DNA of 64,000 nucleotides from Candidatus Micrarchaeia archaeon. GTDB lineage: Archaea; Micrarchaeota; Micrarchaeia; Anstonellales; JAHKLY01. The stretch covers positions 1,180 through 65,179 of the forward strand of contig JBAZFO010000003.1 in NCBI GenBank assembly GCA_041653315.1, read 5' to 3'. The position numbers and the translations under genes were made by a program. Positions 7,956 to 38,060 of the stretch are shown piece by piece (positions within the stretch are counted from its first letter, which is position 1; each line of letters opens with the position of its first letter). Under the pieces are notes generated by a model that was not told where the DNA came from, did no database searches, and was given only the letters and a program-made list of their open reading frames with translations.

Positions 7956-7988
7956 ATTTAAAAAGGCTTTTAGAGAGTACATTTCCGG
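7956..7988. repeat. 33-bp element, copy 2 (upstream of the M gene)
   Basis: Identical to 5579..5611. Confidence 0.8.
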
Positions 7989-9200: not shown

Positions 9201-9515
9201 TTATCTATTTTTAATACGTTTTAGTAGATCTTCTTTCCTTTTGTTAAACTCTGTTATATCTTCATCTTTTATATAAATTTCTAAATTCTCTTGATTTTTT
9301 TCAGCGGCAATGCCAAAAATTCTTTTTTTAGATGACAACATTATTTTAAATAAATATATAAACTGTTTATAAACTTCTGGAGTTTGAATTAAATCTAATT
9401 TACATGTTTTTTCTATTTGTTTACCCTTCTCTTTTGTATCTAAAATTTTAAATGTAATTTTTCCTAAATCTCCACTTAAAAATGAAATTGATTTTATTAT
9501 TATATCTATCACCAA
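9201..9515 (-). CDS. Hypothetical protein (104 aa)
   Basis: ORF only. Downstream partner of 9586..10245 on the same strand. Confidence 0.3.
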   Translation of the reverse strand: MVIDIIIKSISFLSGDLGKITFKILDTKEKGKQIEKTCKLDLIQTPEVYKQFIYLFKIMLSSKKRIFGIAAEKNQENLEIYIKDEDITEFNKRKEDLLKRIKNR

Positions 9516-13200: not shown

Positions 13201-14251
13201 ATATCCTTAACGAATACTTATTTATTTTTTGATTATTATATAAACCAAGCGAATCAACAAATTTTATTACTCTATTCATGATTTCTTTTGTTGATGAAGT
13301 TATGATAACATTATTATCTTCATATGTTGAACCTTCAGCAACATAAACACCTAAAAAATACATAAAATCCTTTGTTAATGGAATTTTTGAAGGTAAAGAA
13401 TTTTGGATATTCCAATTATTAGAATTATTTTTAATCATAAGGTATCCATTTTCTTCAACAACATTTTTTCCTTTTATATAATCTGTTACCTCTAAATATT
13501 CCATTTTTTTATTTACAAATGGAAGTGTACCAACAGTAGGAACCATTTCTCCTCCTTTTAAATTATCAATTGTTTCTGTTTTCCATTCTAAAGTATCTTC
13601 ATCTAAAACTATTAAAGAATGATTTTTAGATACAGTAATCTCTTTTCCTGAAGCAGTTTTTATTTTATATACTCTTTCATTTGCGGGGTGTCTATATATT
13701 GAACTAGCGCTAGTCCATATTAATTTATTGTTTTTCATAGAAGGAACTTCTAAATTCACATTTTGTCCATCCCCAATTAATTTATATAATTCCCCCATTG
13801 TACAAAATTTGGTATTATTATTTATCTTTACTAAAACATGATCTTCTTCTGATATACTTGGCAAATCTTCTGCTGTGGCTGAAGATCTTACTGCAACATA
13901 GGTTTGATCACCATATTTTTGACATAATTTATTATACGCATCCATTATTTCATTTTTTAAATAATCTGGAATTTTACCTGCTAAAATTGCATTTTTAATA
14001 AATAAAGAAGCTTCATTTAAATTTTTAATATTATGAACATCTAAATCACTGGAATATTCTTTTATTAAAGAAGTAATATTATTTAATCTAATAAAATCAT
14101 AATAAGCTCCACTTGAAACACAAAAACCATCTGGAATTGGAAAATCTGAATTAATCATTTCACCTAGATTAGCCCCTTTTCCCCCAACTTCTGCTAAATT
14201 ATTTTTACTCAATTCTTTAAACCAATAGATATTTTTCATTATAAACACCAA
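10280..14251 (-). CDS. ppsA: Phosphoenolpyruvate synthase (PEP/pyruvate-binding, PEP-utilising and PEP-synthase domains), interrupted by an intein
   Basis: N-terminus GGKGANLGEM. Extein junction VAVRSSATAEDLP / TFSFAGQQSTFLN matches the conserved AEDLP..SFAGQQ block. The conserved PEP-utilising domain and C-terminal Cys block are present. Called start is TTG; the in-frame ATG at Met5 is an alternative. Confidence 0.9.
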   Translation of the reverse strand: MVFIMKNIYWFKELSKNNLAEVGGKGANLGEMINSDFPIPDGFCVSSGAYYDFIRLNNITSLIKEYSSDLDVHNIKNLNEASLFIKNAILAGKIPDYLKNEIMDAYNKLCQKYGDQTYVAVRSSATAEDLPSISEEDHVLVKINNNTKFCTMGELYKLIGDGQNVNLEVPSMKNNKLIWTSASSIYRHPANERVYKIKTASGKEITVSKNHSLIVLDEDTLEWKTETIDNLKGGEMVPTVGTLPFVNKKMEYLEVTDYIKGKNVVEENGYLMIKNNSNNWNIQNSLPSKIPLTKDFMYFLGVYVAEGSTYEDNNVIITSSTKEIMNRVIKFVDSLGLYNNQKINKYSLRIYCKTLVKLLHELTGKPLDMKGKGKSCEIKRIPDFIFSLEKQFISEFLKGYFDGDGYVSKDTISCTSSSYLLISGLAKLLELFGFGITFNKKKKYRVLSIWGGDVDLFKKEIGFEHPKKQERLNKLIKIKNNSPRYIANIKISKKLSDIIKNKVDAKLSKDIIEINKCPICKEKINKSSKYKTKTRYYCPNCKKSFYDKDVIKEKEEAYVYYDEFGKFKRESTPWNKGVLNGEYTQKRFKELMKEYNSEDLSSIFDGDVNWEKIKEVKPLDYEGWVYDFTVPGIENFVAGTGGIITHNTFSFAGQQSTFLNIQGPENVVQSVKECWASLFESRAIFYRTENGFDHLKVGLSAVVQKMVQSETAGVAFTVDPITQDKNRIEIEGAYGLGEVVVSGALTPDRYSVKKDDLQIINKFISTQTWKLILSEGKNEHIDISLSSQNLQKLSDDKIVELAKICRKIEKHYGVPQDIEWAYENGKMYIVQSRPITTLDQENTEEKDEVNNLLDSLAEKKDINERYSLSYEEDSPSYYSSDEEQGEVLLKGLGASPGVVSGRVRIIPTKNEIDKIQKGEILVTSMTSPDFVPAMKKAGAIVTDYGGSTSHAAIVSRELGIPCIVGTNDATKKLSTGMNVTVDAVRGVVYEGIIKMKNKETKQISQTEKYSPITGTKIYVNLASSSRVEEIADMDVDGIGLLRAEFIIAEIGEHPRVFVDENRKEEFINKLSNELRKFASAFYPRPVVYRATDFKTNEYKSLKGGEKYEHEEENPMMGFRGASRYISDPNVFKMELEAIKKVRNEFNLKNLWLMIPFVRRVGELKQVKTILHEVGLYRTKDFKLWMMVEVPSNVILLNEFIDVGIDGVSVGTNDLTQLTLGVDRDNAKLAHDFDERNSAVLKSLKYIGKTCNKKGITCSVCGQAPSVYPDFARRLVEYGFTSMSVNPDAIERTRRIVASAEKALLLQNARMNLMRDEDDWLDEA
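12311..13858 (-). mobile_element. Intein (516 aa) with a LAGLIDADG homing-endonuclease domain inside ppsA
   Basis: Begins SISEEDHVLV (Ser1) straight after DLP and ends ...GGIITHN followed by Thr+1. LAGLIDADG blocks LGVYVAEGS and LKGYFDGDGYVS. Removing it restores an 807-aa PpsA. Confidence 0.8.
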
Positions 14252-14364: not shown

Positions 14365-14502
14365 GGGCTCGTAACTCAGCTTGGTAGAGTGGCTGGCTTT
14401 TAACCAGTAAGCCAAGGGTTCAATAACCTTTTTCTTTCTTGCAAGAAAGTAAAAGCTTAACCAAAAAGAAAGAAACTGGAAGAATAAATCCCTTCGGGCC
14501 CG
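14365..14502 (+). tRNA. tRNA-Lys (anticodon UUU) with a roughly 61-nt intron inside the T-loop (between TTCAA and AT, position 58/59)
   Basis: Acceptor GGGCTCG/CGGGCCC, D arm ACTC...GAGT, anticodon stem-loop GCTGG CTTTTAA CCAGT. T stem AAGGG...CCCTT is split by an intron that carries the hairpin TTTCTTTCTTGCAAGAAAG. Poly-T follows. Confidence 0.7.
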
Positions 14503-15330: not shown

Positions 15331-15996
15331 ATGAATAAAAAAATAATAAAAATATTCCCAGGAGTATTTGAAATTGAAAGAAGAATTGCTACAAAGAATT
15401 TAATTAAAGGTAATCCTGTTTATGGAGAAATTATAAAAAAAATAGATAATGATGAATATAGGTTTTGGGACCCTCATAGAAGTAAATTATGTGCTGCAAT
15501 TAAAAGAGGAATAAAAGATATTTATATTAAAGAAGGAGATAAAGTATTATATTTAGGGGCAGCAACTGGAACAACATCTTCTCATGTTGCAGATATTATA
15601 GGCCCTAAAGGAGTAGCTTACTGTGTTGAATTTGCACCTATTTCATTTAGGAAACTTATTCATGTATGCGAAAATAGAACAAATATGATCCCAATAATGG
15701 GAGATGCAAGGAAACCAGATATGTATACTGAAGTTGGAGAAGTAGATATTGTTTATGAGGATGTAGCACAACCAGATTTAGCAGAAATACTATTAACAAA
15801 TTGCAGATATTTCTTAAAAAAAGGAGGATATGCAATGCTTGCTGTTAAATCACAAAGTATTGATGTTACTAAAGATCCAAAACAAACATATGAAGAAACT
15901 ATAAAAAAATTAGAAAAAGAACTAAAAATTGTTGAAACAATTATCTTAGATCCATATGAAAAAGACCACCTGTTTATTGTAGCTCAAAAAATTTAA
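15331..15996 (+). CDS. flpA: Fibrillarin-like rRNA/tRNA 2'-O-methyltransferase
   Basis: FWDPHRSKLCAAI, AdoMet motif YLGAATGTTSSHVADI; 221 aa. Confidence 0.9.
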   Translation: MNKKIIKIFPGVFEIERRIATKNLIKGNPVYGEIIKKIDNDEYRFWDPHRSKLCAAIKRGIKDIYIKEGDKVLYLGAATGTTSSHVADIIGPKGVAYCVEFAPISFRKLIHVCENRTNMIPIMGDARKPDMYTEVGEVDIVYEDVAQPDLAEILLTNCRYFLKKGGYAMLAVKSQSIDVTKDPKQTYEETIKKLEKELKIVETIILDPYEKDHLFIVAQKI

Positions 15997-16745
15997 TGAC
16001 CAAAATATAATTTTACTGCATACATAAAACCTATTCCTATTAAAAACATTAAAAATACTAATATAGAACGTTTCGTATCTTTTTGTTTATGTAATTCTGG
16101 AATTAAATCTGAAGATGCGATATAAATAAAACCTCCTGCTGCAAATGGAAGTAAAAAGGAAGTAAAATTTGGAATATAAATATAAGTTAAGGCACCGATT
16201 AATGCACCTAACACTGCGGTTAATCCAGAAGCAAAATTAAATAATAATGCTTTTTTCTTTTTCCATCCCCCATATAATAAAATAGCAAAATCTCCTATTT
16301 CTTGAGGTATTTCATGCGCTATAATCGCTATTGTTGTTGTTATACCAAAAGGAACGCTTACAATAAATCCAGCAACTATTATTAAACCATCAATAAAATT
16401 ATGAACTCCGTCTCCTATTAAACTCATATATGTAAATGAATGAACTTCACATTCATGTTCATGACAATGGTGCCAAAATAAAAATTTCTCAATTAAAAAA
16501 AATAATGAAAAACCAATTAATACACAAAAAAATGGATCACAAGAAGATACTTCTAACGCTTCTGGTAATAAATGTAAAAAAGCTCCGCCCATTAAAGCGC
16601 CTGCTGAAAAAGCAACTAATAAAATAAGAATTTTTTTTAATTTATCTTCATTTAAACTTAAAGTAATTACTCCTATAAAAGAAAGTAAACTTACAATAAA
16701 TGCAGCACTTATTGAATATATTAAAACTTCATTCATTTTTATCAC
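15993..16745 (-). CDS. ZIP-family divalent metal transporter (ZupT-like)
   Basis: Multi-TM, HNFIDGLII and HEIPQEIGDFAIL signatures. His-rich loop HHCHEHECEVH. Confidence 0.8.
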   Translation of the reverse strand: MIKMNEVLIYSISAAFIVSLLSFIGVITLSLNEDKLKKILILLVAFSAGALMGGAFLHLLPEALEVSSCDPFFCVLIGFSLFFLIEKFLFWHHCHEHECEVHSFTYMSLIGDGVHNFIDGLIIVAGFIVSVPFGITTTIAIIAHEIPQEIGDFAILLYGGWKKKKALLFNFASGLTAVLGALIGALTYIYIPNFTSFLLPFAAGGFIYIASSDLIPELHKQKDTKRSILVFLMFLIGIGFMYAVKLYFGH

Positions 16746-16974
16746 ATTAAAATTTAATATAAAATTATCTCAGAATAAATTTATAAAACATAGCTTTATA
16801 AACGAAAAACACGTATAATATTATAGGCAATGAAGTCACCGTCCCAGTATGAGATTAACGATGATTACCGGAGTAGCTACTGAGCCCATTATTATATTTT
16901 TTAATATTTTATACTCCATTACTTTTTTTACCAAAGTTATACTTTTATATAACTTTCGTAATATAATATCTTCT

Positions 16975-17619
16975 ATGGAATTACCAATTGAGAAAAAATT
17001 AAAAAAACAAGTACATTTAGAAACTGCTATTTTACAAGATATAATAATGGAAAAACTCGTTTATTCCTTAGACTTAGTTCTTCATGGAGGAACTTCTATA
17101 TGGCGAGTATATAAAGGAAATCGGTTTTCTGAAGATTTAGATTTTTATATGGAAAAATGGGAACCTGATAAAATAAAAGAAACTTTAAAAGAATTAGAAA
17201 TTTTTGAAATGAAACTCAAAAAATTTAAAAAAACAAAAAATACTGTTTTTTCAGTAATTGAAAAAAACAATGTAATTGTAAAAGTAGAAGCTTCTAAAAA
17301 ACACTGGAAATTTAAAGAAATGTTAGGAGAATATGAAAAAACAAATGGAAGTTATCTTCCTATTAGTACATTATCAGCAGAAGATTTATTCAAAGAAAAA
17401 ACAAAAACATATTTAAATAGAAGATTGATAAGAGATATTTATGATATATATTTCTTATTCCATCAGTGCGATTTTAAAAAAATAGAAAAAACAGGTAAAG
17501 AATTTATAAAAAATATCCCTTTCCCAAAAGATGAAGATGTTTTAAAATCATTAATTTTAACAGGAAAAGTTCCAACATTTAATGAAATAAAACTAAAATT
17601 ATTAAATTGGTTTAAATAG
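16975..17619 (+). CDS. AbiEii-type nucleotidyltransferase (DUF1814-like toxin of a type IV TA/Abi module)
   Basis: GGTSIWRVYKGNRFSEDLDFY matches the AbiEii GGTAL...RFSEDIDF signature. The track ORF begins at 16849, but the first 42 codons are hydrophobic low-complexity, so ATG at 16975 (MELPIEKK) is preferred. Confidence 0.6.
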   Translation: MELPIEKKLKKQVHLETAILQDIIMEKLVYSLDLVLHGGTSIWRVYKGNRFSEDLDFYMEKWEPDKIKETLKELEIFEMKLKKFKKTKNTVFSVIEKNNVIVKVEASKKHWKFKEMLGEYEKTNGSYLPISTLSAEDLFKEKTKTYLNRRLIRDIYDIYFLFHQCDFKKIEKTGKEFIKNIPFPKDEDVLKSLILTGKVPTFNEIKLKLLNWFK

Positions 17620-17627
17620 GTGAAATT

Positions 17628-18137
17628 ATGAAATATTCGTTAGAAATATTCAAATCAAAAAAATATCCTGTTTTTACGTTTAAAGATATTAAACAATTAA
17701 AAATACCTAAAAACTATGCAAAACAACTTATGTATAATAAAATAAAAAGAGGAGAAGTAAAAAGAATTAAAAAAGGGTATTATACTTTTCACGAAGATCC
17801 AATGATTGTAGTATTTGCATATGAACCAGCATATCTAGGATTAGAATCAGCATTAAGTATACATAAGGTTTGGGATCAAAAAACTGTTCCTGTGATTATA
17901 ACACAAAAAAACGTTAGACAGGGAATAAGAAAATTTAATAATACAAATTATGTTGTTAAAAGAATAGCACCCTCTTTATTTACAGATTACACAACCATTA
18001 ATTATTATGGGTTTTGGCTTCCTGTTTCAACTTTAGAAAAAACTTATGAAGATATCAAATATTTTAATGAAAAAATAGATCCAAAAACTATGAGGAAATT
18101 AAAAAAACTAATTAAAAAAAATAAACTTAAAAAATAA
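17628..18137 (+). CDS. AbiEi-like putative antitoxin/transcriptional regulator (wHTH N-terminus)
   Basis: N-terminal YPVFTFKDIKQL...KRGEVKRIKKGYYTF resembles the AbiEi N-terminal domain. Start is 9 nt after the AbiEii stop. Confidence 0.4.
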   Translation: MKYSLEIFKSKKYPVFTFKDIKQLKIPKNYAKQLMYNKIKRGEVKRIKKGYYTFHEDPMIVVFAYEPAYLGLESALSIHKVWDQKTVPVIITQKNVRQGIRKFNNTNYVVKRIAPSLFTDYTTINYYGFWLPVSTLEKTYEDIKYFNEKIDPKTMRKLKKLIKKNKLKK

Positions 18138-18149
18138 GAAAAAAGAAGT

Positions 18150-18686
18150 TCAATCTTGTTGTTTCTTAATACCATCTAACAACGCAACCAACTGGTTCTT
18201 TATTACCAAATCTAATAATTCTCTTTGACTTGCATGTGCCACCACCATAACATGTTCATCAGATCCCGGCATTGGATATAACGAAATTAAAAATTCTAAC
18301 ACTTCTTTTTTATTTCTAGAACTTAGTTTTTTGACTAAATATTTTAATAAATTATTTACATTAATATCTTTTTTTTCAATATATGTTGAGTTTAAATCAC
18401 TTATTTCATTTAAATCTATATGTATATCAAATGGGCGACCTTTGATTTTAATAACAAAATCTGGTGAGTTGTTTTCTAAAAATTTTGAAATTATAAATTC
18501 CACTGCTTTTTTTCTTTTATTATAATCCATGTCTTGAATTGAATCTAGAAATGTACCTAACAACGTTATTTTTGGAGTTTTTTCAGATAAACCTGAAATT
18601 GGAAAGTTTCTTCCTATGCTGTCGCTTCCTCCTTTAGCTTCTGTATTAGAATCTCCTTTAATTATATGTTCTTTAAATTTTAACAT
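18150..18686 (-). CDS. Hypothetical protein (178 aa)
   Basis: ORF only. Confidence 0.3.
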   Translation of the reverse strand: MLKFKEHIIKGDSNTEAKGGSDSIGRNFPISGLSEKTPKITLLGTFLDSIQDMDYNKRKKAVEFIISKFLENNSPDFVIKIKGRPFDIHIDLNEISDLNSTYIEKKDINVNNLLKYLVKKLSSRNKKEVLEFLISLYPMPGSDEHVMVVAHASQRELLDLVIKNQLVALLDGIKKQQD

Positions 18687-18797
18687 TATACCTCTCCTCC
18701 CCTTTATTTTATATATTATTTTATGTGTTTTTTCTTTATAAATGTTTCTATTAATGTATGACTATGTTAATACTACTATATTATTTTAACTGCCTTT

Positions 18798-18884
18798 TTA
18801 AATCTTTAACTGTTTTAGCGCTATTTATTATATCCTTATCCTGCGCCCAGCCTTTTCGCGCTGTTCCTATTCCTAATTCAATAT
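18798..18884. repeat. About 85-bp direct repeat, copy 1 (intergenic, upstream of gdhA). It is a displaced copy of the polX 3' end
   Basis: Identical to 20250..20335. Its reverse complement encodes IELGIGTARKGWAQDKDIINSAKTVKDL, the PolX C-terminus. Confidence 0.85.
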
Positions 18885-19015
18885 AACTACTAAACTTACA
18901 AATAATACATACATTGCTTCTAAAAACATAGGTGTATAAATCTTTTGTGTGTAATAATATCCTTCTTTATTAATTATCCCCTAAAAAATTCTATTAAAAT
19001 CTGAAAGGTGATTAA

Positions 19016-20233
19016 ATGAGTGTTTTTGAAAATAATATAAAAAGATTAGAAAATTTAAAAGATATAATACCAATAACAAAAAAAGAAATGGAAATTTTAA
19101 CTAATCCTAAAAAAGTGCTTAAAGGAAAGATAAAAATAAAGGACAAAGAATACGAAGCGTATAGAATAATATTTAATGATTCATTAGGTCCTGGAAAAGG
19201 TGGAATAAGGTTTCATCCAAAAGTAAATGAAGATGAGGTAAACTCATTGGCTTTTTGGATGGCTTTAAAAAACTCATTAGTTGGATTACCTTATGGCGGA
19301 GCTAAAGGAGGAGTAAATATTGATCCTAAACAATTAACACAAAAAGAATTAGAAGAAGTAAGCAGACAATATATGCAATTATTTTATGAAAACTTTGGAC
19401 AAAATAAAGATATTCCTGCACCAGATGTTAATACTAATTCTCAAATAATGGCTTGGATGCTTGATGAATATGAAAAAATTAAAAATAAACATGAATTCTC
19501 AATGATAACTGGAAAACCTATTGAATTAGGTGGGTGTGAATTAAGAGCAGGAGCAACAGGACAAGGAGGAGCAATTGTTTTAGATAATATAATAAAAAAA
19601 TTGGGAAAAAATCCAGATGAAACTACCGTTGCTATTCAAGGCTTTGGAAATGTTGGATTATATCTAGCTAAATTTTTATTTGAACGAGAGTATAAGATAA
19701 TTGCAATTAGTGATATTTCTGGAATGGTCTATGATAAAGAAGGTTTAAACATAAATAATTTAATCAATGATATGAAAGGAAAAGAATATCTAAAAGACTG
19801 CGGAATGGAAATAAAAGATAAAGAAGAATTATTATATTTAGAATGCGATGTTTTAGCGCCTTCTGCTTTAGAAAATCAAATAACAAAAGAAAACGCAGAT
19901 AAAGTAAAGGCAAAGATAATTTTGGAAATGGCAAATGGCCCAATAACTTCAGAAGCAGATGAAATTTTAAATAAAAATGATATTTTAATTATACCTGATA
20001 TTTTAGCAAATTCAGGAGGGGTTATTGTAAGTTATTTTGAATGGGTTCAAAATAAATTAGGTAATTTCTTTGAAATGGAAGATTTAGAAAGAAAATTAGA
20101 ATGTATATTAAACAAAACAACAGATAAAGTATTTAATCAAGAATTAAAAGACAAATATAATTTAAGAACAGTTGCTTATGCGCTTGCTATAAAAAGAATT
20201 TTAGATGCAGAAAAACTAAGAGGCAACTGCTAA
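19016..20233 (+). CDS. gdhA: NAD(P)-dependent glutamate dehydrogenase
   Basis: Catalytic LPYGGAKGGVNIDP and Rossmann GFGNVGL. AGGTGA Shine-Dalgarno-like motif 7 nt upstream. Confidence 0.9.
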   Translation: MSVFENNIKRLENLKDIIPITKKEMEILTNPKKVLKGKIKIKDKEYEAYRIIFNDSLGPGKGGIRFHPKVNEDEVNSLAFWMALKNSLVGLPYGGAKGGVNIDPKQLTQKELEEVSRQYMQLFYENFGQNKDIPAPDVNTNSQIMAWMLDEYEKIKNKHEFSMITGKPIELGGCELRAGATGQGGAIVLDNIIKKLGKNPDETTVAIQGFGNVGLYLAKFLFEREYKIIAISDISGMVYDKEGLNINNLINDMKGKEYLKDCGMEIKDKEELLYLECDVLAPSALENQITKENADKVKAKIILEMANGPITSEADEILNKNDILIIPDILANSGGVIVSYFEWVQNKLGNFFEMEDLERKLECILNKTTDKVFNQELKDKYNLRTVAYALAIKRILDAEKLRGNC

Positions 20234-21936
20234 TTTTTTATTTTTTTTATTAAATCTTTAACTGTTTTAGCGCTATTTATTATATCCTTATCCTGCGCCC
20301 AGCCTTTTCGCGCTGTTCCTATTCCTAATTCAATAAATCTTAGATGATCAATTGAATGTGAATCTGTTCCTATTGATAATTGTACTCCTTTTTGTATTGC
20401 GCGCCTTATATTATCTGCGCTTAAATCTAATCTATCCATATAACAATCTATTTCTAATGTGGTATTTGTTTGTTTTGCTTTTTCAAATATCTCATCTAAA
20501 TTTAAATTATATCCATCTCTTTTACCTATAACTCTTCCTGTTGGATGTGCTATTATATCAACATTTTCATTTTCCATAGCATTCATTATTCTTTTAGTCA
20601 TGTCTTTTTCAGACATTTTAAAATTGGAGTGAACTGCACCTAAAACAATATCTAATTCTTTTAAAATATTATCAGGAACATCAATTGAACCATCTTTTCT
20701 TATGTTTGCTTCAACTCCTTTTAATACTGTTATTCCATTTACTTCTTTATTTACTTTATCTATTTCTTTTGCTTGTTTTTCAAAATCAATTTCTTTTAAT
20801 CCTTGAGCAATTACTAAATCAGCTAATGAATGGTCTGTTATAAGAATATATTTATGGCCTAATTTTTTAGCTGCTAGAGCCATTTCTTTAATTGAATTTG
20901 AACCATCACTCCAAGTAGAATGCATTTGTAAATCTCCATATACTTTTGAAATTAAATTAGGTATTTTATTTTTTTCAGCTAATTCAATTTCTCCATTATT
21001 TTCTCTTAATTCTGGGGGAACATATTGTAAATTTAATTTTGAATAAACTTCTTTTTCTGTTTTTCCTGCTTCTTGTTTTTTATCTTTAAAAAGTCCGTAT
21101 TCATTTAATTTCAATTTATTTTTCATTGCTATTCTTCTTAAAGCAATATTATGTTCTTTTGAACCCGTAAAATACATCATTGCTGAACCAAATTCATTTT
21201 CATTAAATATTCTAAAATCACAATCAATTCCTATATTCAAAAAAGCAGTGCTTTTTAATTTTCCTTTTGATTTTATTTTTTCAATATATTTTAAAGATGT
21301 AAATTTATCCATTGCTTTTTGTGGATTATCTGAAACAACCAAAATATCTATATCTCCAATAGTTTCTTTCATTCTTCTTAATGAACCTACAAGTTCTATT
21401 TGTTTTATTGATTTTTCTTTTTTTAACTCACTTTTTATTTCATTTGCTATAGGTAAAACATAACCTAATAACTGCCTTCCTTTTATTCTTGAAAGCATTT
21501 GTATCCCATTTAATATTTCTTCTTCTGATTTTTCTCCAAAACCATCTAATTCTTTTATTTTATTATTTTTAACTGCTTTTTCTAATTCATTTAAATTTGT
21601 TATATTTAATTTTTCATATAAAATCTTTATTTTTTTAGGACCTAATGAAGGAATTCTTTTTAAAGAATCAAAATCAACAGGAATTTCTTTTTTTAATCTT
21701 TCATATGTTCCTATTTTTCCTGTTTCTAAATATTCTATTATTTTCTCTTTTGTTGATTTTCCAACTCCTGAAATTGAATCTAATCTTTTTTCTTTATATA
21801 ATATTTCAATATCTTCTTGGAGCATTTCTATTGAAGTTGCAGCATTTCTATATGCTCTTGGGCTCCAATCAACTCCTTTTAATTCTAATAAATCAGCAAT
21901 TTTATAAAATATATTAGCTATTTCTTGATTTTTCAT
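20230..21936 (-). CDS. polX: Family X DNA polymerase with C-terminal PHP phosphoesterase domain (PolX)
   Basis: HhH GVGKSTKEKI, pol beta NTase GSLRRMKETIGDIDILV, PHP motifs LQMHSTWSDGS and HS..DH. Confidence 0.85.
   Translation of the reverse strand: MKNQEIANIFYKIADLLELKGVDWSPRAYRNAATSIEMLQEDIEILYKEKRLDSISGVGKSTKEKIIEYLETGKIGTYERLKKEIPVDFDSLKRIPSLGPKKIKILYEKLNITNLNELEKAVKNNKIKELDGFGEKSEEEILNGIQMLSRIKGRQLLGYVLPIANEIKSELKKEKSIKQIELVGSLRRMKETIGDIDILVVSDNPQKAMDKFTSLKYIEKIKSKGKLKSTAFLNIGIDCDFRIFNENEFGSAMMYFTGSKEHNIALRRIAMKNKLKLNEYGLFKDKKQEAGKTEKEVYSKLNLQYVPPELRENNGEIELAEKNKIPNLISKVYGDLQMHSTWSDGSNSIKEMALAAKKLGHKYILITDHSLADLVIAQGLKEIDFEKQAKEIDKVNKEVNGITVLKGVEANIRKDGSIDVPDNILKELDIVLGAVHSNFKMSEKDMTKRIMNAMENENVDIIAHPTGRVIGKRDGYNLNLDEIFEKAKQTNTTLEIDCYMDRLDLSADNIRRAIQKGVQLSIGTDSHSIDHLRFIELGIGTARKGWAQDKDIINSAKTVKDLIKKIKN
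20250..20335. repeat. About 85-bp direct repeat, copy 2 (native polX 3' end)
   Basis: Identical to 18798..18884. Confidence 0.85.
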
Positions 21937-22026
21937 ATAAAACTAACATACGTAATGTTTAAATTAATTTTATAAATATTTCAAATCTATAGAAAGCTAT
22001 ATAAACATATAGAATAATATAACATT

Positions 22027-22242
22027 ATGACAAATACAACAATTATGATTGATTTAGAAATAAAATCTGCATTGGATTCTCTTAAAATACATCATAGAGA
22101 ATCATATAAAGAAATTATTGAAAAACTTATTAATTTTTATTTAGATGAAAAAAAATTGAAAAATTTTGTAGATGAAGCACAAAAAGAAAAAATAAAGGAG
22201 CTTTGGGATAATGAATGGGATGAAATCTGGAACACAGCTTAA
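22027..22242 (+). CDS. Small antitoxin-like protein (MazE/RHH-like), putative partner of the downstream PemK/MazF-like gene
   Basis: 71 aa, acidic C-terminus, overlaps the next gene by 32 nt. Assignment is by context. Confidence 0.35.
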   Translation: MTNTTIMIDLEIKSALDSLKIHHRESYKEIIEKLINFYLDEKKLKNFVDEAQKEKIKELWDNEWDEIWNTA

Positions 22243-22537
22243 ATTTGGAGATATAATATTAGCTGAAATACCTTTTGTTGAAATTAATGAAGTTAAAAAA
22301 AGACCTGCTTTGGTCCTATTCGAAGAACATAATAATGTAATTTTAATGGGCATAACAAGCAATCCACTAATGAAAGGAATTCAAATAACTAAAAAAGAGG
22401 GTGCTTTAACAAACAGCATTATTAAATTAAATTATATATTTACAATTGATAAAAATAAAATTATTAAAAAACTCTTTTCTTTATCTAAAAATAAAAAAGA
22501 TTTAATTTCTAGAGAATTTATTAAAAAAATAAAATAA
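22211..22537 (+). CDS. MazF/PemK-family toxin-like endoribonuclease
   Basis: GDIILAEIPF...KKRPALVL...VILMGITSN matches the PemK/MazF core pattern (GDIV..fP...K.RPalVl....v.v..iTs). Confidence 0.5.
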   Translation: MNGMKSGTQLKFGDIILAEIPFVEINEVKKRPALVLFEEHNNVILMGITSNPLMKGIQITKKEGALTNSIIKLNYIFTIDKNKIIKKLFSLSKNKKDLISREFIKKIK

Positions 22538-22546
22538 AAGAGGATG

Positions 22547-24661
22547 TTATTCCTCTTGTGTTTCATTTTGTGTTTCTTCTTCTATTGTTTCATTTTCTGC
22601 TTCTGTTTCATTTGTGTTTTCTCCTATTGCGTCTTCTAGTATTTCTTCTGCAGTTATTTCAATGAGTTTTAATTTTGCCTGCCTATCTGTAATTACACAA
22701 GTGTATAATGCATCATCAGAAGTTTCACCATTTATTTCTAAGATTTTGATTGTATATTGTCCTATTGTAAATGTTTCTCCTTCTTCTACTGCTCTTGTTG
22801 TTTCACTGCCGCCTTCCTCAAAAAATAATTCTGCTTCTTTGTCTGAAATTTCACATTTGTCATTTGCTTCTTGTGTTTTGAAGGTTATTGTGTTTAAACC
22901 TAATTTTAAATCACCAAAATCTTCATCTTCTCCTTCTTCAAATGTAAATTCTTCAGATATAGGTTCCATTATTTTTAATTCTGCTTTTTTATTTGATATA
23001 TCACATCCATCTTCATCGTCATTTAATTCAACATCTGCTATAATATCTTCTAATTCTATTTCTATATTATCAACTTTTATTGAATCTCCTAACAAAACAT
23101 CAGATTTAGATTTGCCATATTTTAAAGTTGCATCTTCTTTAATTAAGAAACAAGCTGCTTCAACTTCAACATCTAATGAAACTTTTTCACTATTGATTAC
23201 ACATTTTTCTTGATCTTCATCATATTCAACATCAATATCAAATTCTTTTACTAAGATAATGATATTATCTTTTCTTCCTGTTGTTTCACTATCTTCATCA
23301 CCTAAAGTTAATTTATAATCGTCCTCTCCATCCTCGATTTCTAAAACTACTTTCATATTTGAGGCAGTACAATCACTTGAAGGTAAAGTTAATTTTAAAG
23401 TCACTTCTTCATTATCTATTTCACACGTTCCATTAACTGAATCTTCCATATCTTCAGTTATTTCCATAACTTTTACTCTTTCTCCAGTTATGAAAACTTT
23501 TTCATCACCATAACCTAAAGTAAATGTTTCTGTTGTTAAATCTGGGAATAATAATTGTAAATCAACTTCTCTGTTTGTTATTGTACATTCTTCATCATAA
23601 GTAGTTATTCTTAAAGTTACATTTTCATTTGTAATTTCACATTCTTCTTCAATACATTCAATTTCTTGGCTTATGTCTGTTACTTGAACTCTTACTCTAT
23701 TACTTACAAAACTTGAAGCTCCTTCATTTAATTCAAATGTATCTGTTCCAGAACCTTCTGGACTAACTTTTAATATCACAGATTCTGAAATAATTTCACA
23801 ATCTTCAGTGCAATTTTCAGTTTCAGTATCTATTCTATATATTTCTATTTCAGTATCTTCATCTAAAGTTATATCTTCTCCTTCTTCAAATGTTTGAGTT
23901 TCAACATCAGTATCTGGAGCACCAATTTCTTGAGTAACATCTGTTATTCTAATTGTATAATCTCCGGTTAATGAAGCTTGTTCCCCTTCATCTTTCGTTA
24001 TTGTTACATCTGCCATATCTCCGATAGATACATCTTCTGTTATTGATTTTACTTTTATTTTAATATCATTTTCTAATTCCTTAGTTTCTTGTTCATCATA
24101 AATATCTGAATTAGAAAATGCTTCAACAAATTCTGTTGTTGCTCCTATTGTTTCAACTTCAACATCTGTTCCTGTTGATAAAGTAGTTGAATCAGTAACT
24201 GGAACTACTACTTTCTTTGATGAAACATCTGAAGATTGAACATTAAGTTTTATTTCCTTATTTTTTACTTCACATCCTTTTTTCTCAACACTAAAAATTT
24301 GATTTATATCTTCAATAAATAAAGCTAAATTATCAGATAGAACTTCTTGTCCTTGTTCTATTAAAGTAAATGTTTTGGATTCATTATCTTTAACTGCTTC
24401 TATTTTTATTTTTTCATCTGATATAATACATGTTCCATTATCATATTCTGCATCTTCAGATATGCTTTTTACTAATAAATTCCACCCTTCTAAAGTTGTA
24501 TTTTCTCCTTCTTTTAAACTTGTTGAAGTATCAATTGGAACACAAGTACAATCTTCTTGTTGAATAAATCCTTCTGGACATTCACTTGGACAACCTTCCG
24601 GTCCTAAACATCCAAAAAACAGCATTGATATTAATAATAATCCTAGAATATATTGTTTCAT
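22547..24661 (-). CDS. Secreted or surface-anchored, extremely acidic protein. N-terminal signal and lipobox-like Cys cluster, then about 11 repeats of a C-x-I-[ST]-[DN]-x-x-[AV]-x-L-K motif
   Basis: MKQYILGLLLISMLFFGCLGPEGCPSECPEGF. Repeat examples: GTCIISDEKIKIEAV, CEITNENVTLRIT, GTCEIDNEEVTLKLT, DKCEISDKEAELFF. C-terminal D/E/T-rich tail. Confidence 0.5.
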   Translation of the reverse strand: MKQYILGLLLISMLFFGCLGPEGCPSECPEGFIQQEDCTCVPIDTSTSLKEGENTTLEGWNLLVKSISEDAEYDNGTCIISDEKIKIEAVKDNESKTFTLIEQGQEVLSDNLALFIEDINQIFSVEKKGCEVKNKEIKLNVQSSDVSSKKVVVPVTDSTTLSTGTDVEVETIGATTEFVEAFSNSDIYDEQETKELENDIKIKVKSITEDVSIGDMADVTITKDEGEQASLTGDYTIRITDVTQEIGAPDTDVETQTFEEGEDITLDEDTEIEIYRIDTETENCTEDCEIISESVILKVSPEGSGTDTFELNEGASSFVSNRVRVQVTDISQEIECIEEECEITNENVTLRITTYDEECTITNREVDLQLLFPDLTTETFTLGYGDEKVFITGERVKVMEITEDMEDSVNGTCEIDNEEVTLKLTLPSSDCTASNMKVVLEIEDGEDDYKLTLGDEDSETTGRKDNIIILVKEFDIDVEYDEDQEKCVINSEKVSLDVEVEAACFLIKEDATLKYGKSKSDVLLGDSIKVDNIEIELEDIIADVELNDDEDGCDISNKKAELKIMEPISEEFTFEEGEDEDFGDLKLGLNTITFKTQEANDKCEISDKEAELFFEEGGSETTRAVEEGETFTIGQYTIKILEINGETSDDALYTCVITDRQAKLKLIEITAEEILEDAIGENTNETEAENETIEEETQNETQEE

Positions 24662-24709
24662 ATAAAATCACCAATTTAAATATTATACTAAAATATTTAA
24701 ATATAGTGT

Positions 24710-25588
24710 TTACTCTTTTTTAATGAAACATAATACAAAAATCATTATTCCAGTATATATAATTAATATATAATTCTTGTATGTCTCAGGTAAATAAATT
24801 AATAAAAGAAGGAATAATAATAAGAAAATTAAACCATAAAAATATTTTTTAGGAACTAATTTAAAAAGAATTTCAACTTTATCTAAATAAGAATTTTTAT
24901 GTGCTTCTTCAAAATTTAAAGAGATATTAGTTAAACCTTGAAAATTCTCTGCAAATATAGTTTTTTCTAATTTATCAAAATATTCAAATATTTCCTCTTT
25001 ATTATCCATAGTTATTGCTTTTAACTGCAATATCTCTTCTAATGAAAAAATAACAGATTTTATTTCGGCCATTAAAGATGGATTTAAATCAGGCATATTT
25101 GCATCATTTAAAGTATTTTTTATTTTAATAAATTCTAATTTTAATTCTTTAACTGATTTTTTAACTTCATCAAGATAAACTCCCCTATTTAAAGGATCAT
25201 CTAACTTCTTTTTTGTTTTGATTATTAAATATTTTAAATAATCACTATATGAAAATCCATAATTCTTTTTAAAATAAGAAAGAAATAGTTTTAATGAAGG
25301 TCTTCCTATTTGGATATTTAAAAAGGCTAAAAATTTTTCTAAAATAAAACAAAATAAAAGTATTGAAAAAGTAAATAAAAATAATAAAAATACTGCACTC
25401 ACTAAAGAAGTTAACACTATTAATATAACATTTTCTTCTAAAGTAAAATTAACTAAATAATAAAGAATAAATACAAAACTTATTAAATATACAATACCAT
25501 GCCACCATCTTCTAAAAGAAACTGCTGCTGAAATATCATCAAAAACTATATCTCCATTATTTTTTGTTTTCATATTTAAACGCCCCAA
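24710..25588 (-). CDS. Integral membrane protein, hypothetical
   Basis: Several hydrophobic segments at both ends and a charged central region. Confidence 0.4.
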   Translation of the reverse strand: MGRLNMKTKNNGDIVFDDISAAVSFRRWWHGIVYLISFVFILYYLVNFTLEENVILIVLTSLVSAVFLLFLFTFSILLFCFILEKFLAFLNIQIGRPSLKLFLSYFKKNYGFSYSDYLKYLIIKTKKKLDDPLNRGVYLDEVKKSVKELKLEFIKIKNTLNDANMPDLNPSLMAEIKSVIFSLEEILQLKAITMDNKEEIFEYFDKLEKTIFAENFQGLTNISLNFEEAHKNSYLDKVEILFKLVPKKYFYGLIFLLLFLLLLIYLPETYKNYILIIYTGIMIFVLCFIKKE

Positions 25589-25652
25589 ACCTTATTTGAT
25601 ATTTTTATTTTATATCTTCTTCTTTATAAATGTTTTGCTTTGTGTAAAAAAA

Positions 25653-25678
25653 AGTAAATAGCCTGCCTCAGACTCTGT
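25653..25678. repeat. 26-bp direct repeat AGTAAATAGCCTGCCTCAGACTCTGT, copy 1
   Basis: Identical copy at 27321..27346 spanning the AbiEii stop codon. Confidence 0.8.
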
Positions 25679-25836
25679 TTGAATTATGTGTGAATAGACT
25701 AACCTACATTGTTTATTTAACTTAATTTTGTAATAATATCTTTTCCTTCATAAAATTAGTTCAAAAAGTGTCATTTAATGACACTTTTTAAAAAGAAATA
25801 GAAAGGTTTTTATATTAGTAAGTAATAAACATATCT

Positions 25837-26433
25837 ATGAAAAATATAATTAAAATTTATGAAGCACTGATTAATCGAAAATCAAAAATATGTCATAGAA
25901 AAGAAATTATTGATATAATCAAAGAATATAATAAAAAATTTGGGAAAGTAAACATTAAAAACACGCTAAAATATCTTTCAAGACATAAATATACTATACG
26001 AGTATTCAAAAAGTTCTATTATATAAATTCATTAGATGAAAAGGAGCGTAAATTTTGTTTATTTGAAGATAGAGAATTATTATTTTCTGTATTAAACAAA
26101 CTCGATATTAAATGGTATGTTGGACTTAACTCTGCTTTATACATTTCTGGAGAAATTTGGCAAATACCAAACATATTGACAATAGTAAACAACAAAATAA
26201 GTGGAAAAAAATCAATACTTGGAATTACTGTTAGATTCTTCAAAATAAAAGAATCTTTAATTTTCGGCCTTAAGACAAAAAAAACTAAAAATAAAATTAA
26301 ATTTTATTACTCTAATCCCTCAAAAACTTATTTAGATTTAGTATATTTCAAACAATCTAAAAAAATTATTTTAAAGGAAAAAACTAAAAATTATCTTAAG
26401 AGGTATCCAAAATGGCTCAAAAAATTAATATAA
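25837..26433 (+). CDS. AbiEi-like antitoxin/regulator
   Basis: N-terminal wHTH-like LKYLSRHKYTIRVFKKFYYI. Overlaps the downstream AbiEii gene by 22 nt. Confidence 0.5.
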   Translation: MKNIIKIYEALINRKSKICHRKEIIDIIKEYNKKFGKVNIKNTLKYLSRHKYTIRVFKKFYYINSLDEKERKFCLFEDRELLFSVLNKLDIKWYVGLNSALYISGEIWQIPNILTIVNNKISGKKSILGITVRFFKIKESLIFGLKTKKTKNKIKFYYSNPSKTYLDLVYFKQSKKIILKEKTKNYLKRYPKWLKKLI

Positions 26434-27329
26434 ATAAATACATTGCAGAGGTCAAAAGGAATCTTGGAATAAAAGTTTCAGATGAAATAATTGAAAAAGA
26501 CCTGCTTCTGACTATTATTTTAGGGGAGTTTGAAAAGCTCGGGCTTGGAAAAGAACTTATTTTTAAAGGAGGAACTCTTTTATCGAGAAATTATTTGAAT
26601 TACCATCGATTTTCTGAAGATTTGGATTTTGTTCATCATAAATCCAATAAATTAAGAAAAATGAAAAGAAGAACAAGAGAAAAGGAAATTAAAAAATTCA
26701 TAGATTCATTTGTTCCAAAAATATATACATTAGCTGAAAACCTTGAACTTATATTTAGTAAAAATAGAAGTGATACAAAATTCTGTACTATTCTTCATGG
26801 AAGGACAGTATATATTTTCAGAATGTATTATTCTAACTCTAGATTTATAAAAATTGAGATTAATTTTATAGAAAAAATTATTCACAAACCAGTAAAAATT
26901 TCAATAAAAACAATAACTGATCTTTTTGATTCAAAAGAACTTGTGTTCAGTCTTGGGCTTGATATTCAAAACTTTAATATAAAAAGCTATTCTATAAATG
27001 AAATACTCATTGAAAAATACAGGGCAATTTTAACAAGAAAAGACTTAAAAGAAAGGGATTTGTTTGATTTATTTTTTATTCCAAATTCTCTTTCAATAAA
27101 AAAATCTGAAATAATACAAAAAATAAGTGCTTCATCATTAATAAAACGGGATCTTAATAAACTAATAGAAAAAAAACTTACTTTACTTGAAAAAAACAAT
27201 TTTTTTGAGAGTGATGAAAATATGGAATACCTAGCAATCGCTAATTATGATAAAAAGAAATTTGAAAAATTTAAGGAAAAAATAAAACCAAAACTAATAG
27301 AAATTTGCAAGACATTTTTAAGTAAATAG
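26412..27329 (+). CDS. AbiEii-type nucleotidyltransferase toxin (DUF1814-like)
   Basis: KGGTLLSRNYLNYHRFSEDLDFVH signature. Confidence 0.7.
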   Translation: MAQKININKYIAEVKRNLGIKVSDEIIEKDLLLTIILGEFEKLGLGKELIFKGGTLLSRNYLNYHRFSEDLDFVHHKSNKLRKMKRRTREKEIKKFIDSFVPKIYTLAENLELIFSKNRSDTKFCTILHGRTVYIFRMYYSNSRFIKIEINFIEKIIHKPVKISIKTITDLFDSKELVFSLGLDIQNFNIKSYSINEILIEKYRAILTRKDLKERDLFDLFFIPNSLSIKKSEIIQKISASSLIKRDLNKLIEKKLTLLEKNNFFESDENMEYLAIANYDKKKFEKFKEKIKPKLIEICKTFLSK

Positions 27330-27346
27330 CCTGCCTCAGACTCTGT
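27321..27346. repeat. 26-bp direct repeat, copy 2
   Basis: Identical to 25653..25678. Confidence 0.8.
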
Positions 27347-27476
27347 CAGCCTTCTCATCGCATTTCTGCTAAACGGTTGTTCATGTCATCATCGGCTTTG
27401 TCTATAATATACGAACATTTCTGCGCATAATATCATAGACAATTATATTTATGCTTTTTCCCTTTATAAATATTAC

Positions 27477-28379
27477 CTATTGATTTAATTTTATTTCTCT
27501 TAAAACTTCTTTTGTTTTTTCTATTAAATTCTGTGCTTTTTCTTCTCCTTTTACTGTAAAAACTCCTACACGCTTATGGCCTCCTCCACCATATTGTTCT
27601 GCATAAGCGCCCGCATTAAAATCAGTATCAACATCTTTTCTAAACATATTATAAGAAACATTTATTTTTATTAAATTTGGATTTTTTTGACTTTGATAAA
27701 TTATAATCCCAAAAGGAATTTTAGAATGTAACGCATGAACTAAAAATTTTCCAATTTTTGGAGCTTGTCTCCCTCCTCTCATATCTAAAACAAAAAATTT
27801 ATTATCTTCAACTTCAGACCAAGCTTCTATTATATCTTTATAAAATTCAATATCCTTTAATATTATTTCAGCATTATCTTTAACTTCAGGAATTTCTAAA
27901 ATTTCTTCTGGTTTTTTAAAAGAAAGCCAATTAACCATTTTTAATAAATACTTATCAGTTTCCCAAGGTTTATCATAAACAATACTTGAAAATGCAATTA
28001 ATATATACCCTTTTGGTTCTAACACATCTTCAATTTCATATTCTGCACTATCAATTTTATTTGTAATCTCTATTAATTCTCTATATTTATCTAAATAAGG
28101 ATTTTCATAATAATTATAAATCACTTGGGCACAGCTTTTTTCTAGAGCAAAAGATCCTTCAAATTTTAAACTTATTCTATTTGTTGTATGGTGATCAAAC
28201 CACATCCCACATTTTTTATGATAAGGCAAATCAGAAATCACATCATATTTAGTAACGAACACTTTATTTCTAATTACTGAATTTGGAGTAGTAAAAACTA
28301 TTTTATCAATATCTTCAACATCTTTCAATAAAACAGCACATACAACCCCATCAAAATCTCTATGTGTTAATAATCTCAT
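27477..28379 (-). CDS. DHH/DHHA1-family phosphoesterase (NrnA-like nanoRNase/pAp phosphatase)
   Basis: Motif I HRDFDGVVCAV, motif III FDHHT, DHHA1 GGGGH near the C-terminus; 300 aa. Confidence 0.8.
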   Translation of the reverse strand: MRLLTHRDFDGVVCAVLLKDVEDIDKIVFTTPNSVIRNKVFVTKYDVISDLPYHKKCGMWFDHHTTNRISLKFEGSFALEKSCAQVIYNYYENPYLDKYRELIEITNKIDSAEYEIEDVLEPKGYILIAFSSIVYDKPWETDKYLLKMVNWLSFKKPEEILEIPEVKDNAEIILKDIEFYKDIIEAWSEVEDNKFFVLDMRGGRQAPKIGKFLVHALHSKIPFGIIIYQSQKNPNLIKINVSYNMFRKDVDTDFNAGAYAEQYGGGGHKRVGVFTVKGEEKAQNLIEKTKEVLREIKLNQ

Positions 28380-28567
28380 ACTTATTATTAAATAGTAGAA
28401 ATAAATAAAAAATAGCGTATTACTTTTTTGGATTAATATCTTTAAAATAAGATCTTCTTCCTAATTTTTCCTTTTTTGTATCTTGTTTTTTTTCTCCTTC
28501 AGAATCTGTTCCATCCCAAAAAATCATATTATCACCAATTAATTTATTTAACATAAAAATATAAAAA

Positions 28568-28810
28568 TGCTCCGGCCGGGATTTTCTCCCAGTTGGCTTT
28601 TTTGCGCCAGCCAAGGTTTTGAATTCTCGAGCCTACAGGGTTCTTTTCTTTCCCTGGGGTTTCTTTTCTTACAAGAAAAGAAAGGCCACCCGGGTCGCCA
28701 GGGATCTCCAAATTTTCTTTTTCTTTCCCAAGGGTTTCTTTTTCTTTTCAAAAAAGAAAAAGAAAGGCTTTGAGAGCCTGGTATCCTTGACCGGACTAGA
28801 CGACCGGAGC
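28568..28810 (-). tRNA. tRNA-Glu (anticodon CUC) interrupted by three predicted introns: in the anticodon loop, at the T-stem/T-loop junction (about 53/54) and within the T-loop (58/59)
   Basis: Exons read GCTCCGGTCGTCTAGTCCGGTCAAGGATACCAGGCTCTCA / CCCTGGCGACCCGGG / TTCAA / ATCCCGGCCGGAGCA. Joined, they give a canonical archaeal tRNA-Glu (GACCCGGGTTCAAATCCCGGCCGGAGCA). Poly-T follows. Confidence 0.6.
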
Positions 28811-38033: not shown

Positions 38034-38060
38034 AACTTCATTAAAACATAAACCTTTAAA

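Follow-up and report, generated by a model that had tools for sequence, protein, structure and literature searches.

A repeat-flanked gdh gene and a stranded polX end in a Micrarchaeia archaeon: a probable 3'-end displacement scar at a hypervariable locus

In the 64 kb of DNA analysed here (the window, 26% G+C), which come from a contig of a Candidatus Micrarchaeia metagenome-assembled genome (MAG), the glutamate/leucine-family dehydrogenase gene gdh lies between two exact copies of an 86-bp direct repeat. One copy belongs to the 3' end of polX, which encodes a family X DNA polymerase and converges on gdh; the other lies on the far side of gdh, is non-coding and is followed by what appears to be the original polX tail. 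We propose that the original end of polX was probably displaced by an additive recombination anchored on that end, and that the locus, which seems to be hypervariable in this clade, is a scar of 3'-end displacement, that is, a recombination product of a known kind and not a new type of element. The scar is a legible one, with the old copy, the added part and a border gene that survived with a swapped tail all still in place. Such records are of interest in DPANN archaea (named after Diapherotrites, Parvarchaeota, Aenigmarchaeota, Nanoarchaeota and Nanohaloarchaeota), whose genomes are tiny and whose gene gain and loss are poorly understood.

The polX end is duplicated on both sides of gdh

The two copies of the repeat, R1 beyond gdh and R2 within polX (Table 1), are identical at all 86 positions and offset by 1452 bp; at 26% G+C about 2e-35 such 86-mer pairs would be expected by chance. 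No third copy is present: on neither strand does any 14-mer of the repeat recur in the rest of the 64 kb. Identity ends abruptly at both borders. On one side the 18-19-nt flanks t1 (next to R1) and t2 (next to R2) differ at 8 of 18 positions, and on the other R1 continues into the gdh upstream region (U) and R2 into the polX body, so that the order along polX is polX body, R2, t2, gdh, U, R1, t1. A preliminary description of this DNA had reported an 85-bp direct repeat duplicating the 3' end of polX around gdh, which is borne out at a length of 86 bp. Its statement that the repeat comprises the last codons of polX needs correction, as the final six codons of the live gene (IKKIKN) and its stop lie outside the repeat. 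Taken at face value, the identity at 86 of 86 positions bounds the divergence of the copies to at most 3.5% at P = 0.05.

The two tails differ in kind. Every related polX ends in K[KR]xLK followed by a stop: KRKLK in P0002 of contig L021 and KKRLK in P0003 of L022 (both 79% identity), KKKLK in P0004 of L024 (66%) and in P0005 (65%), KKQLK in L028, and KKKLK in a polX remnant on L029. The tail that follows R1, KRQLK, fits this pattern and that of the live polX, IKKIKN, does not. Since KRQLK is the tail type of all related polX genes, R1 together with t1 appears to be the displaced original end of polX, and the live gene would carry a replacement tail. At the nucleotide level, t1 has 4-5 mismatches per 18 nt to the other tails, which lies inside their mutual range of 1-5, and t2 has 5-6 mismatches to the related tails and 8 to t1. 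The best distance of t2 (5 mismatches) is matched by approximately 0.9% of the 18-mers of the window and by 28% of the A-rich ones; t2 may be either a diverged polX tail or an unrelated A-rich spacer, the complement of the T-run that stands immediately after gdh on the plus strand. R1 has no in-frame ATG, GTG or TTG after the upstream stop (at about 18969) and is not among the listed open reading frames (ORFs). Positions 18781-18883 should be annotated as a polX pseudogene fragment.

Both genes are otherwise intact and arranged tail to tail, with the gdh stop codon TAA (20231-20233) overlapping the TAG stop of polX. The segment between the repeats (18884-20249) encodes only gdh and holds no other credible ORF. 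It has no terminal inverted repeats: between its first and last 80 nt the longest inverted match is 7 nt and internal, and its ends align at 9 of 25 positions. No transposase or integrase lies within approximately 10 kb of the insert, and no recombinase family was found in the Pfam matches of 27 proteins covering 4.6-40 kb of the window. Furthermore, gdh is single copy in the window and only the 86 bp are duplicated, unlike in a simple tandem duplication. All four junctions (t1/R, R/U, t2/R and R/polX body) occur in contigs assembled at k = 31 by Logan from run SRR18595300.

Gene order around polX and gdh in related Micrarchaeia

Loci from related Micrarchaeia (L021, L022/L023, L024, L028 and L029/L030/L031), all approximately 80% identical to the window in nucleotide sequence, were compared. 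The polX protein of the window matches an annotated PolX from a Candidatus Micrarchaeia MAG at 100% identity and its nearest relatives at 79%, and the gdh of the window is 81-84% identical to that of related Micrarchaeia. In L028 and L022/L023 the order is fibrillarin, Zip, a 62-nt small RNA (sRNA) gene, gdh and convergent polX, with no repeat. L024 likewise has the sRNA, gdh and convergent polX and no repeat, and there fibrillarin and Zip sit further off, an asparagine-synthase and a TnpB-like (OrfB_IS605) gene coming between them and the sRNA. In L021, polX adjoins the sRNA and Zip and gdh is absent. In L029/L030/L031, gdh is kept and polX is lost save for a 48-nt end remnant (11223-11270 on L029, reading NSAKTVKDLKKKLK followed by a stop) beside an orphan gene and a toxin-antitoxin pair of the AbiEii/AbiEi type. 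In the window, an AbiE pair, a 178-aa orphan gene and R1-t1 stand between the sRNA and gdh. In the comparison of gene order that the preliminary description had proposed, gdh thus lies next to polX in most relatives, is absent in L021 and stands without polX in L029. The impression it gave of gdh as a newcomer does not hold, gdh being already tail to tail with polX, free of repeats, in L022/L023, L024 and L028. Judged by these arrangements, gdh beside polX is the common state and the stranded polX end the peculiarity of the window.

The presence of gdh is polymorphic even among close relatives, as fibrillarin, Zip and polX are 95% identical between L021 and L028, which differ in whether gdh is there. 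Their polX tails differ at 5 of 18 nt. Flanks that are nearly identical, together with a different gdh state and a different tail, indicate that the tail travels with the cassette and not with polX. The AbiE pair of the window is orthologous to that of L029 (9233-10439, 84.8% nucleotide identity; the start codon was placed by comparison with L029); it and the orphan gene, with R1-t1, make up the block lying between gdh on one side and the sRNA and Zip on the other. Since a polX remnant stands beside AbiE in L029/L030 too, the association of the polX end with AbiE predates the duplication. The sRNA gene ("E" in Table 1), whose TATA box approximately 27 nt upstream is conserved and whose sole Rfam match is a sub-threshold one to the archaeal C/D sRNA sR39, marks where the variable region ends on its far side, a fixed border beyond which comes Zip (15993-16745, minus strand). 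The stretch from the polX end to the sRNA and Zip is thus a hypervariable cassette site in this clade.

Two wider searches added little. A polX query against a genome collection returned only relatives of approximately 50% identity, from the Candidate Phyla Radiation (CPR) and DPANN, which are useless for synteny, and a degenerate pattern of the repeat in one metagenome scan hit only the L021 contig and, by chance, a bacterial tRNA region (L026). As a separate observation, the first 29 nt of the R region in the L029 remnant are identical to R of the window despite a genome-wide divergence of approximately 17%.

Additive recombination as the probable origin

We favour, as the probable origin of this arrangement, an additive recombination anchored on the polX end that displaced the original end. 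A 1452-bp unit, in which a copy of polX's final 86 conserved bp is joined to t2, gdh and the 132 bp upstream of gdh, would have been added between the polX body and its old end, and the original end (R1 and t1, 18781-18883) would thereby have been stranded 1.45 kb from its gene. The addition of an R-bearing segment at R is suggested because the order body, R, t2, gdh, U, R, t1 is exactly the product of such an event, with the polX end itself serving as the homologous anchor. Two routes might lead to it: a single crossover with a circularised fragment, as in Campbell-type insertion-duplication, or one homologous exchange in polX combined with an illegitimate join of the incoming DNA's far end just upstream of the resident R, i.e., homology-facilitated illegitimate recombination. 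The incoming DNA may have come from a related genome, or from a sister chromosome copy, with the common arrangement in which gdh abuts polX; a search of gdh against viral contigs gave a single 36% match and thus no sign of a virus-borne cassette. The outcome would be a polX that stays intact with a new six-residue tail, a gdh that keeps its own promoter, and an inert R1. What the preliminary description had called an insertion into the 3' region of polX therefore survives as a 1452-bp gdh unit bounded by a duplication, and the transposition-type target duplication that it had suggested does not.

Later recombination between the two perfect repeats could delete gdh and restore the old polX end. 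Such an excision, considered also in the preliminary description, is plausible; it would leave polX with its ancestral end and the locus without gdh, as in L021. The presence of gdh in this population may be unstable.

The ancestry of gdh and of its surroundings was compared by bootstrap quartets of gdh, a 700-aa gene beyond polX, fibrillarin and Zip. The window gdh groups with that of L028, in 100% of the bootstrap quartets with L024 as fourth taxon and in 90% with L022. The upstream region agrees, in that the block 18917-19003 of U can be aligned only to the gdh upstream region of L028 and the alignments with L029 and L022 begin at 19004 and 19007, respectively. The 700-aa gene pairs the window with L029 (98% of the bootstrap quartets), and the two genomes share both the AbiE pair beside the polX end and a second, older AbiE insertion. 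This mosaic would fit a gdh-bearing allele of one type joined to a backbone of another.

Several points weigh against this account. The tail t2 is A-rich and of low complexity and cannot be shown to be homologous to polX tails, and sliding-window identity along gdh-polX gave no recombination breakpoint inside polX. The fibrillarin and Zip quartets were unresolved, so the backbone ancestry rests mostly on one fast-evolving gene and the shared insertions. The gdh phylogeny, a check named in the preliminary description, thus did return a discordance, which could equally mean that L029, and not the window, replaced its gdh. A divergent donor, with a different tail and a discordant gdh, should not give an R identical at 86 of 86 positions; an identical R beside differing tails requires that the donor was very close and its cassette allele old (cf. 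L021 and L028), or that conversion took place later. Finally, no donor and no pre-insertion genome of the same lineage was found among relatives of which the nearest are approximately 80% identical, and it is for this reason that the direction of the event and its one-step nature are what we infer.

A conceivable, if unlikely, alternative is that the gdh-AbiE block was duplicated in tandem within the chromosome and parts of it were then lost at random. An ancestor with the order sRNA, gdh, AbiE, orphan gene and polX, as in L029, would have duplicated the segment from upstream of gdh to 104 nt inside polX, and two deletions, of the first gdh and of the second AbiE and orphan gene, would then have swapped gdh and AbiE, so that R1 would mark the junction of the duplication and t2 the scar of a deletion. 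This scheme needs no donor, explains both sharp borders of the 86 bp as endpoints and their perfect identity as recency, and starts from an order (gdh, AbiE, polX end) that L029 in fact has; the T-run of t2 right after gdh could be a leftover of the gdh 3' flank. It nevertheless demands three events, two of them illegitimate deletions that must take place before the unstable 3-kb copies collapse by homologous recombination, and no remnant of a second gdh or AbiE is present. The adjacency of the sRNA and the AbiE promoter motif looks native, being found also in L021 and L022, and not like a deletion scar, and gdh with its upstream region groups with L028, not with L029.

Support from an independent assembly

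The Logan contigs tile the region with sequence identical to the window: L033 covers 16557-18827, L025 covers 18854-20279 and L034 covers 20306-25678, and two further contigs match exactly over 25649-27349 (L037) and 27320-28629 (L038). At R the contigs stop 30 nt inside the repeat on every side, which is what 86 bp of repeat must produce at k = 31, and the polX product of the Logan contig is accordingly truncated to 543 aa by the break inside the repeat. The same strain is also represented in JGI 3300035208. The junctions do not by themselves fix the order in which segments are linked across R. The upstream region of gdh has no other left neighbour, as L025 starts at 18854 and not at 18884. 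With the R/U junction present in reads and no alternative left neighbour, gdh has no other chromosomal home in the sample.

These contigs bear on a second alternative, namely that the arrangement is an artefact of the assembly or of a mixed population: a gdh-less chromosome (t1-R-polX) together with a 1452-bp circle or with the gdh unit repeated in tandem, or else several such forms side by side. The k = 31 contigs prove the four junctions and not their order, the sample is heterogeneous, with contig breaks at 16557 and at a 27-bp repeat (see below) that the assembled sequence does not explain, and only the MAG contig links both sides, since the exact polX is absent from the gene-position index and the Logan polX is truncated at 543 residues. 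Even so, we consider an artefact quite improbable. It is countered by the R/U junction just described, and a circle of 1.45 kb whose only gene is metabolic and which lacks any replication function would probably not last. The 70.5-kb MAG contig, on which the polX, gdh and orphan proteins are identical to those of the window, traverses both copies, and an analogous structure in L029 was assembled twice independently (L029 and L030). The assembly error that the preliminary description had considered is thereby answered in part, the four junctions being reproduced and linkage across R being read from the MAG contig and not independently.

Other repeat-flanked cassettes

Three further cassettes with flanking direct repeats were found, one in L029/L030 and two in the window (Table 1), and comparable repeats are rare in the other loci fetched. 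In L029/L030 the AbiEii-AbiEi pair is flanked by a direct repeat of 40 nt exact and 107 nt at 85%; its first copy consists of the last nine gdh codons (DAEKLRGNC and the stop) with the spacer and promoter that follow, and its second is a detached fragment before the next gene. In the window, a perfect 33-bp repeat flanks a 311-aa ORF and an N6 DNA methylase gene (5612-7935, minus strand). The same 33 bp are single-copy upstream of a diphthamide synthase gene in L028 and L029, where no insert is present. A perfect 27-bp repeat flanks a second AbiEi/AbiEii pair (cassette 25679-27319) and corresponds to the 3' end and downstream sequence of a C/D-box-like sRNA. In L021 and L028 nothing interrupts this site; in L029 the same insertion is left as a decayed remnant.

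The Logan contigs break at the 27-bp repeat (ends at 25678, 25649, 27349 and 27320) in a way that the repeat does not cause, for the contexts share no 30-mer. The breaks match an empty-site junction to the base and do not match a circle junction, which suggests that an empty-site allele of the second AbiE cassette, with the predicted 31-mer AAA+AAGTAAATAGCCTGCCTCAGACTCTGT+C, coexists in SRR18595300 as a presence/absence polymorphism. The insertion also bears on the age of the gdh repeat, whose perfect identity had been read in the preliminary description as the mark of a recent event. Recency is likely but not certain, because the 27-bp repeat is still perfect although its insertion predates the split from L029, so conversion or constraint can preserve such repeats.

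Together with these three parallels, the gdh locus suggests that recombination on short homology suffices to shuffle both defence genes and gdh, a gene central to nitrogen metabolism, among close Micrarchaeia, without the enzymes of mobile elements. One might go further and regard all of these units, gdh, both AbiE pairs and the methylase alike, as instances of one systematic, integrase-free mode of gene exchange in Micrarchaeota: cassettes of 1.2-2.4 kb would bring along 27-107 nt of their target, add themselves at the ends of conserved genes or sRNAs, and leave by recombination of the flanking copies. We offer this as an unlikely conjecture. If it were true, even a core metabolic gene such as gdh would be a reversible, population-level accessory cassette. 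A literature search for Micrarchaeota and direct repeats found nothing relevant.

A very improbable explanation of the same pattern is a dedicated cassette mobility, in which small circles carrying a copy of the attachment sequence are moved into and out of gene ends by a recombinase whose gene lies elsewhere. Two sister genomes with four such cassettes, all bordered by perfect or near-perfect repeats of a native target and three placed at the 3' terminus of a gene or sRNA, would suit such a system, as would the rarity of these repeats at other loci, the replacement gene end supplied by the element-proximal copy, as in elements that integrate at 3' ends, and the contig breaks around the 27-bp repeat, which fit a coexisting empty-site allele. 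The repeats of 27, 33, 40 and 86 nt are, however, unrelated in sequence and show no common recombinase site, the cassette ends share no motif or inverted repeat, neither the cassettes nor the scanned 4.6-40 kb encode a recombinase, and homologous recombination on short homology gives the same pattern without new machinery. Insertion of a transposon or insertion sequence (IS) with target-site duplication is practically negligible, for apart from the bare topology of a direct repeat on either side of an insert nothing speaks for it: the duplication of 86 bp (27, 33 and 40 nt for the other cassettes) is far too long against a typical 2-15 bp, the insert encodes only gdh with no inverted match at its termini and no transposase or integrase nearby, and the differing tails beside the two copies could not be produced by staggered-cut fill-in.

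Comparison with known systems

The proposed displacement of the polX end resembles that described for rhs and contact-dependent growth inhibition (CDI) as well as type VI secretion system (T6SS) effector-immunity loci, where section 13 of PMC5361080 attributes C-terminal displacement to homology-facilitated illegitimate recombination (citing Jackson et al. 2009, Koskiniemi et al. 2014, and de Vries & Wackernagel 2002). The same section describes sequential displacement of effector 3' ends in Vibrio T6SS clusters, with orphaned ends that keep a piece of the conserved region. As in those systems, the incoming DNA would be anchored in a conserved resident gene, the old 3' end is shifted downstream as an orphan, and the orphan keeps a conserved stretch that forms a direct repeat with the live gene, so that a deletion can reinstate the orphan end. 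Unlike in those systems, the gene concerned encodes a housekeeping polymerase of DNA repair, the cargo, a metabolic gene, lies on the opposite strand and is not a toxin tip with its immunity gene, only six polX residues are exchanged, hence with no functional diversification, and the host is a DPANN archaeon. To our knowledge, neither DNA uptake nor a process of 3'-end displacement has been shown in DPANN archaea.

Campbell-type insertion-duplication is the integration of a circle with chromosomal homology by a single crossover. It likewise yields homology, insert and homology in a row, with copies that are identical if donor and recipient are identical in the homologous part, and it is reversible. 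In contrast to the classical case, there is no evident circular vector or replicon, so a 1452-bp circle would have to form from a linear fragment, and the homology is short (86 bp here and 27-40 bp in the parallel cases). Integrative elements and prophages insert at the 3' ends of tRNA or protein genes and carry a replacement end (attL/attR). The gdh unit is similar to them in that the repeat duplicates the 3' end of its target, the copy in the insert keeps polX intact at 568 aa and the original end lies on the far side. It differs in that it has no integrase, consists of one gene of housekeeping type whose native place in the relatives is this same position, and shares no attachment sequence, the gdh of the relatives being repeat-free and the repeats of the other cassettes unrelated. 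Gene-order change by tandem duplication and random loss has been described for organelle genomes. Such a process would similarly swap gdh and AbiE and leave pseudogene fragments at junctions, but it needs several steps, no other remnants are seen, and the different tails and the discordant gdh remain unexplained by it.

In transformation-triggered merodiploidy, alternative pairing of repeats leads to tandem copies of 100-900 kb between pre-existing IS-derived repeats (PMC3784515). What the two cases would share is the origin of repeat-bordered duplications through recombination with DNA that was taken up and part of which is repeated in the chromosome. They differ in that here the repeat itself is the new product and only 86 bp are duplicated.

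Features of the locus and of the window

The coordinates of the region are given in Table 1. The 178-aa orphan gene directly downstream of the putative displaced polX end had no match but itself among 5.8 billion proteins. The spacer D ahead of it has no homology to the relatives by blastn and holds a TATA-like run and a purine-rich run resembling a ribosome-binding site ahead of the ATG at 18686.

Table 1. Features of the gdh-polX region and flanking repeats of the other cassettes (window positions unless stated otherwise)
Feature	Position	Strand	Basis or remark
sRNA gene "E", C/D-box-like, 62 nt	16826-16887	plus	conserved in L021, L022, L024, L028 and L029
AbiEii (16975-17619) and AbiEi (17628-18137), toxin-antitoxin pair	16975-18137	plus	Pfam AbiEii, AbiEi_4
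178-aa orphan gene, directly downstream of the putative displaced polX end	18150-18686	minus	no Pfam family
D, spacer from the putative displaced polX end to the orphan gene	18687-18780	minus	sequence
t1, KRQLK tail and stop TAA (18781-18783)	18781-18797	minus	contiguous with R1; translation
R1, detached non-coding copy of the polX 3' end	18798-18883	minus	minus-strand reading (Y)IELGIGTARKGWAQDKDIINSAKTVKDL; identical to R2
U, gdh upstream and promoter region, 132 bp	18884-19015	plus	blastn
gdh, glutamate/leucine-family dehydrogenase, 405 aa, intact	19016-20233	plus	Pfam ELFV_dehydrog_N, ELFV_dehydrog
t2, putative replacement tail IKKIKN of the live polX and stop TAG (20230-20232)	20230-20249	minus	first base of the Ile codon inside R2
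R2, repeat copy within the live polX	20250-20335	minus	encodes polX residues IELGIGTARKGWAQDKDIINSAKTVKDL
polX, family X DNA polymerase with PHP domain, 568 aa, intact	20230-21936	minus	Pfam HHH_8, pol beta palm and thumb, PHP
33-bp perfect direct repeat ATTTAAAAAGGCTTTTAGAGAGTACATTTCCGG	5579-5611 and 7956-7988		
27-bp perfect direct repeat	25652-25678 and 27320-27346		flanks the second AbiEi/AbiEii pair
AbiE-flanking repeat of L029	9177-9283 and 10430-10536 (L029)		also in L030

A palindromic AT-rich motif, ACCAAAGTTATAC TTTT ATATAACTTT, stands upstream of AbiEii, of a 226-aa gene and of gdh in different genomes, at approximately 16940-16975 in the window, at 9245-9285 and 10498-10538 in L029, and beside the sRNA in L021 and L022. 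The palindrome AAAGTTATAC TTTT ATATAACTTT was considered as an attachment site or as an IS200/IS605-like end and rejected, a TATA promoter fitting better. The motif is probably the TATA promoter of leaderless AbiEii, 226-aa gene and gdh transcripts, and it may possibly serve as an AbiEi operator. On the other side of polX, between it and the 704-aa gene, a MazF/PemK-type toxin gene (108 aa) with a 71-aa partner occupies 22027-22537, where the relatives have approximately 50 nt.

A second conserved C/D-box-like sRNA gene lies at 27332-27397 (minus strand). Both sRNAs have a C box (AUGAAG/AUGAUGA), a D box (CUGA) and a terminal GGC/GCC stem, one of them lies two genes from fibrillarin, and both have only sub-threshold Rfam matches, to archaeal sR families (E = 0.52 and 0.0018). 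Rfam tRNA matches at 14372-14431 (plus strand) and 40194-40252 (minus strand) cover model positions 8/9-63 only, and ARAGORN calls no tRNA anywhere in the window; the matches may represent tRNA genes that are atypical, intron-containing or split.

The phosphoenolpyruvate (PEP) synthase/pyruvate phosphate dikinase (PPDK)-family gene at 10280-14251 (minus strand) encodes 1323 aa, owing to an intein with a LAGLIDADG homing endonuclease, and its orthologues in the relatives are approximately 800 aa long. Two tandem amino-acid permease paralogues (438 and 444 aa; 36717-39395, minus strand) are identical over two stretches near their 5' ends, one of 95 and one of 48 bp, which suggests recent duplication or gene conversion. 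Outside the Micrarchaeia, an exact 161-bp direct repeat (2696-2856 and 6292-6452) brackets the region of a polX homologue (2863-4536) on an unrelated Peribacteria contig, L015.

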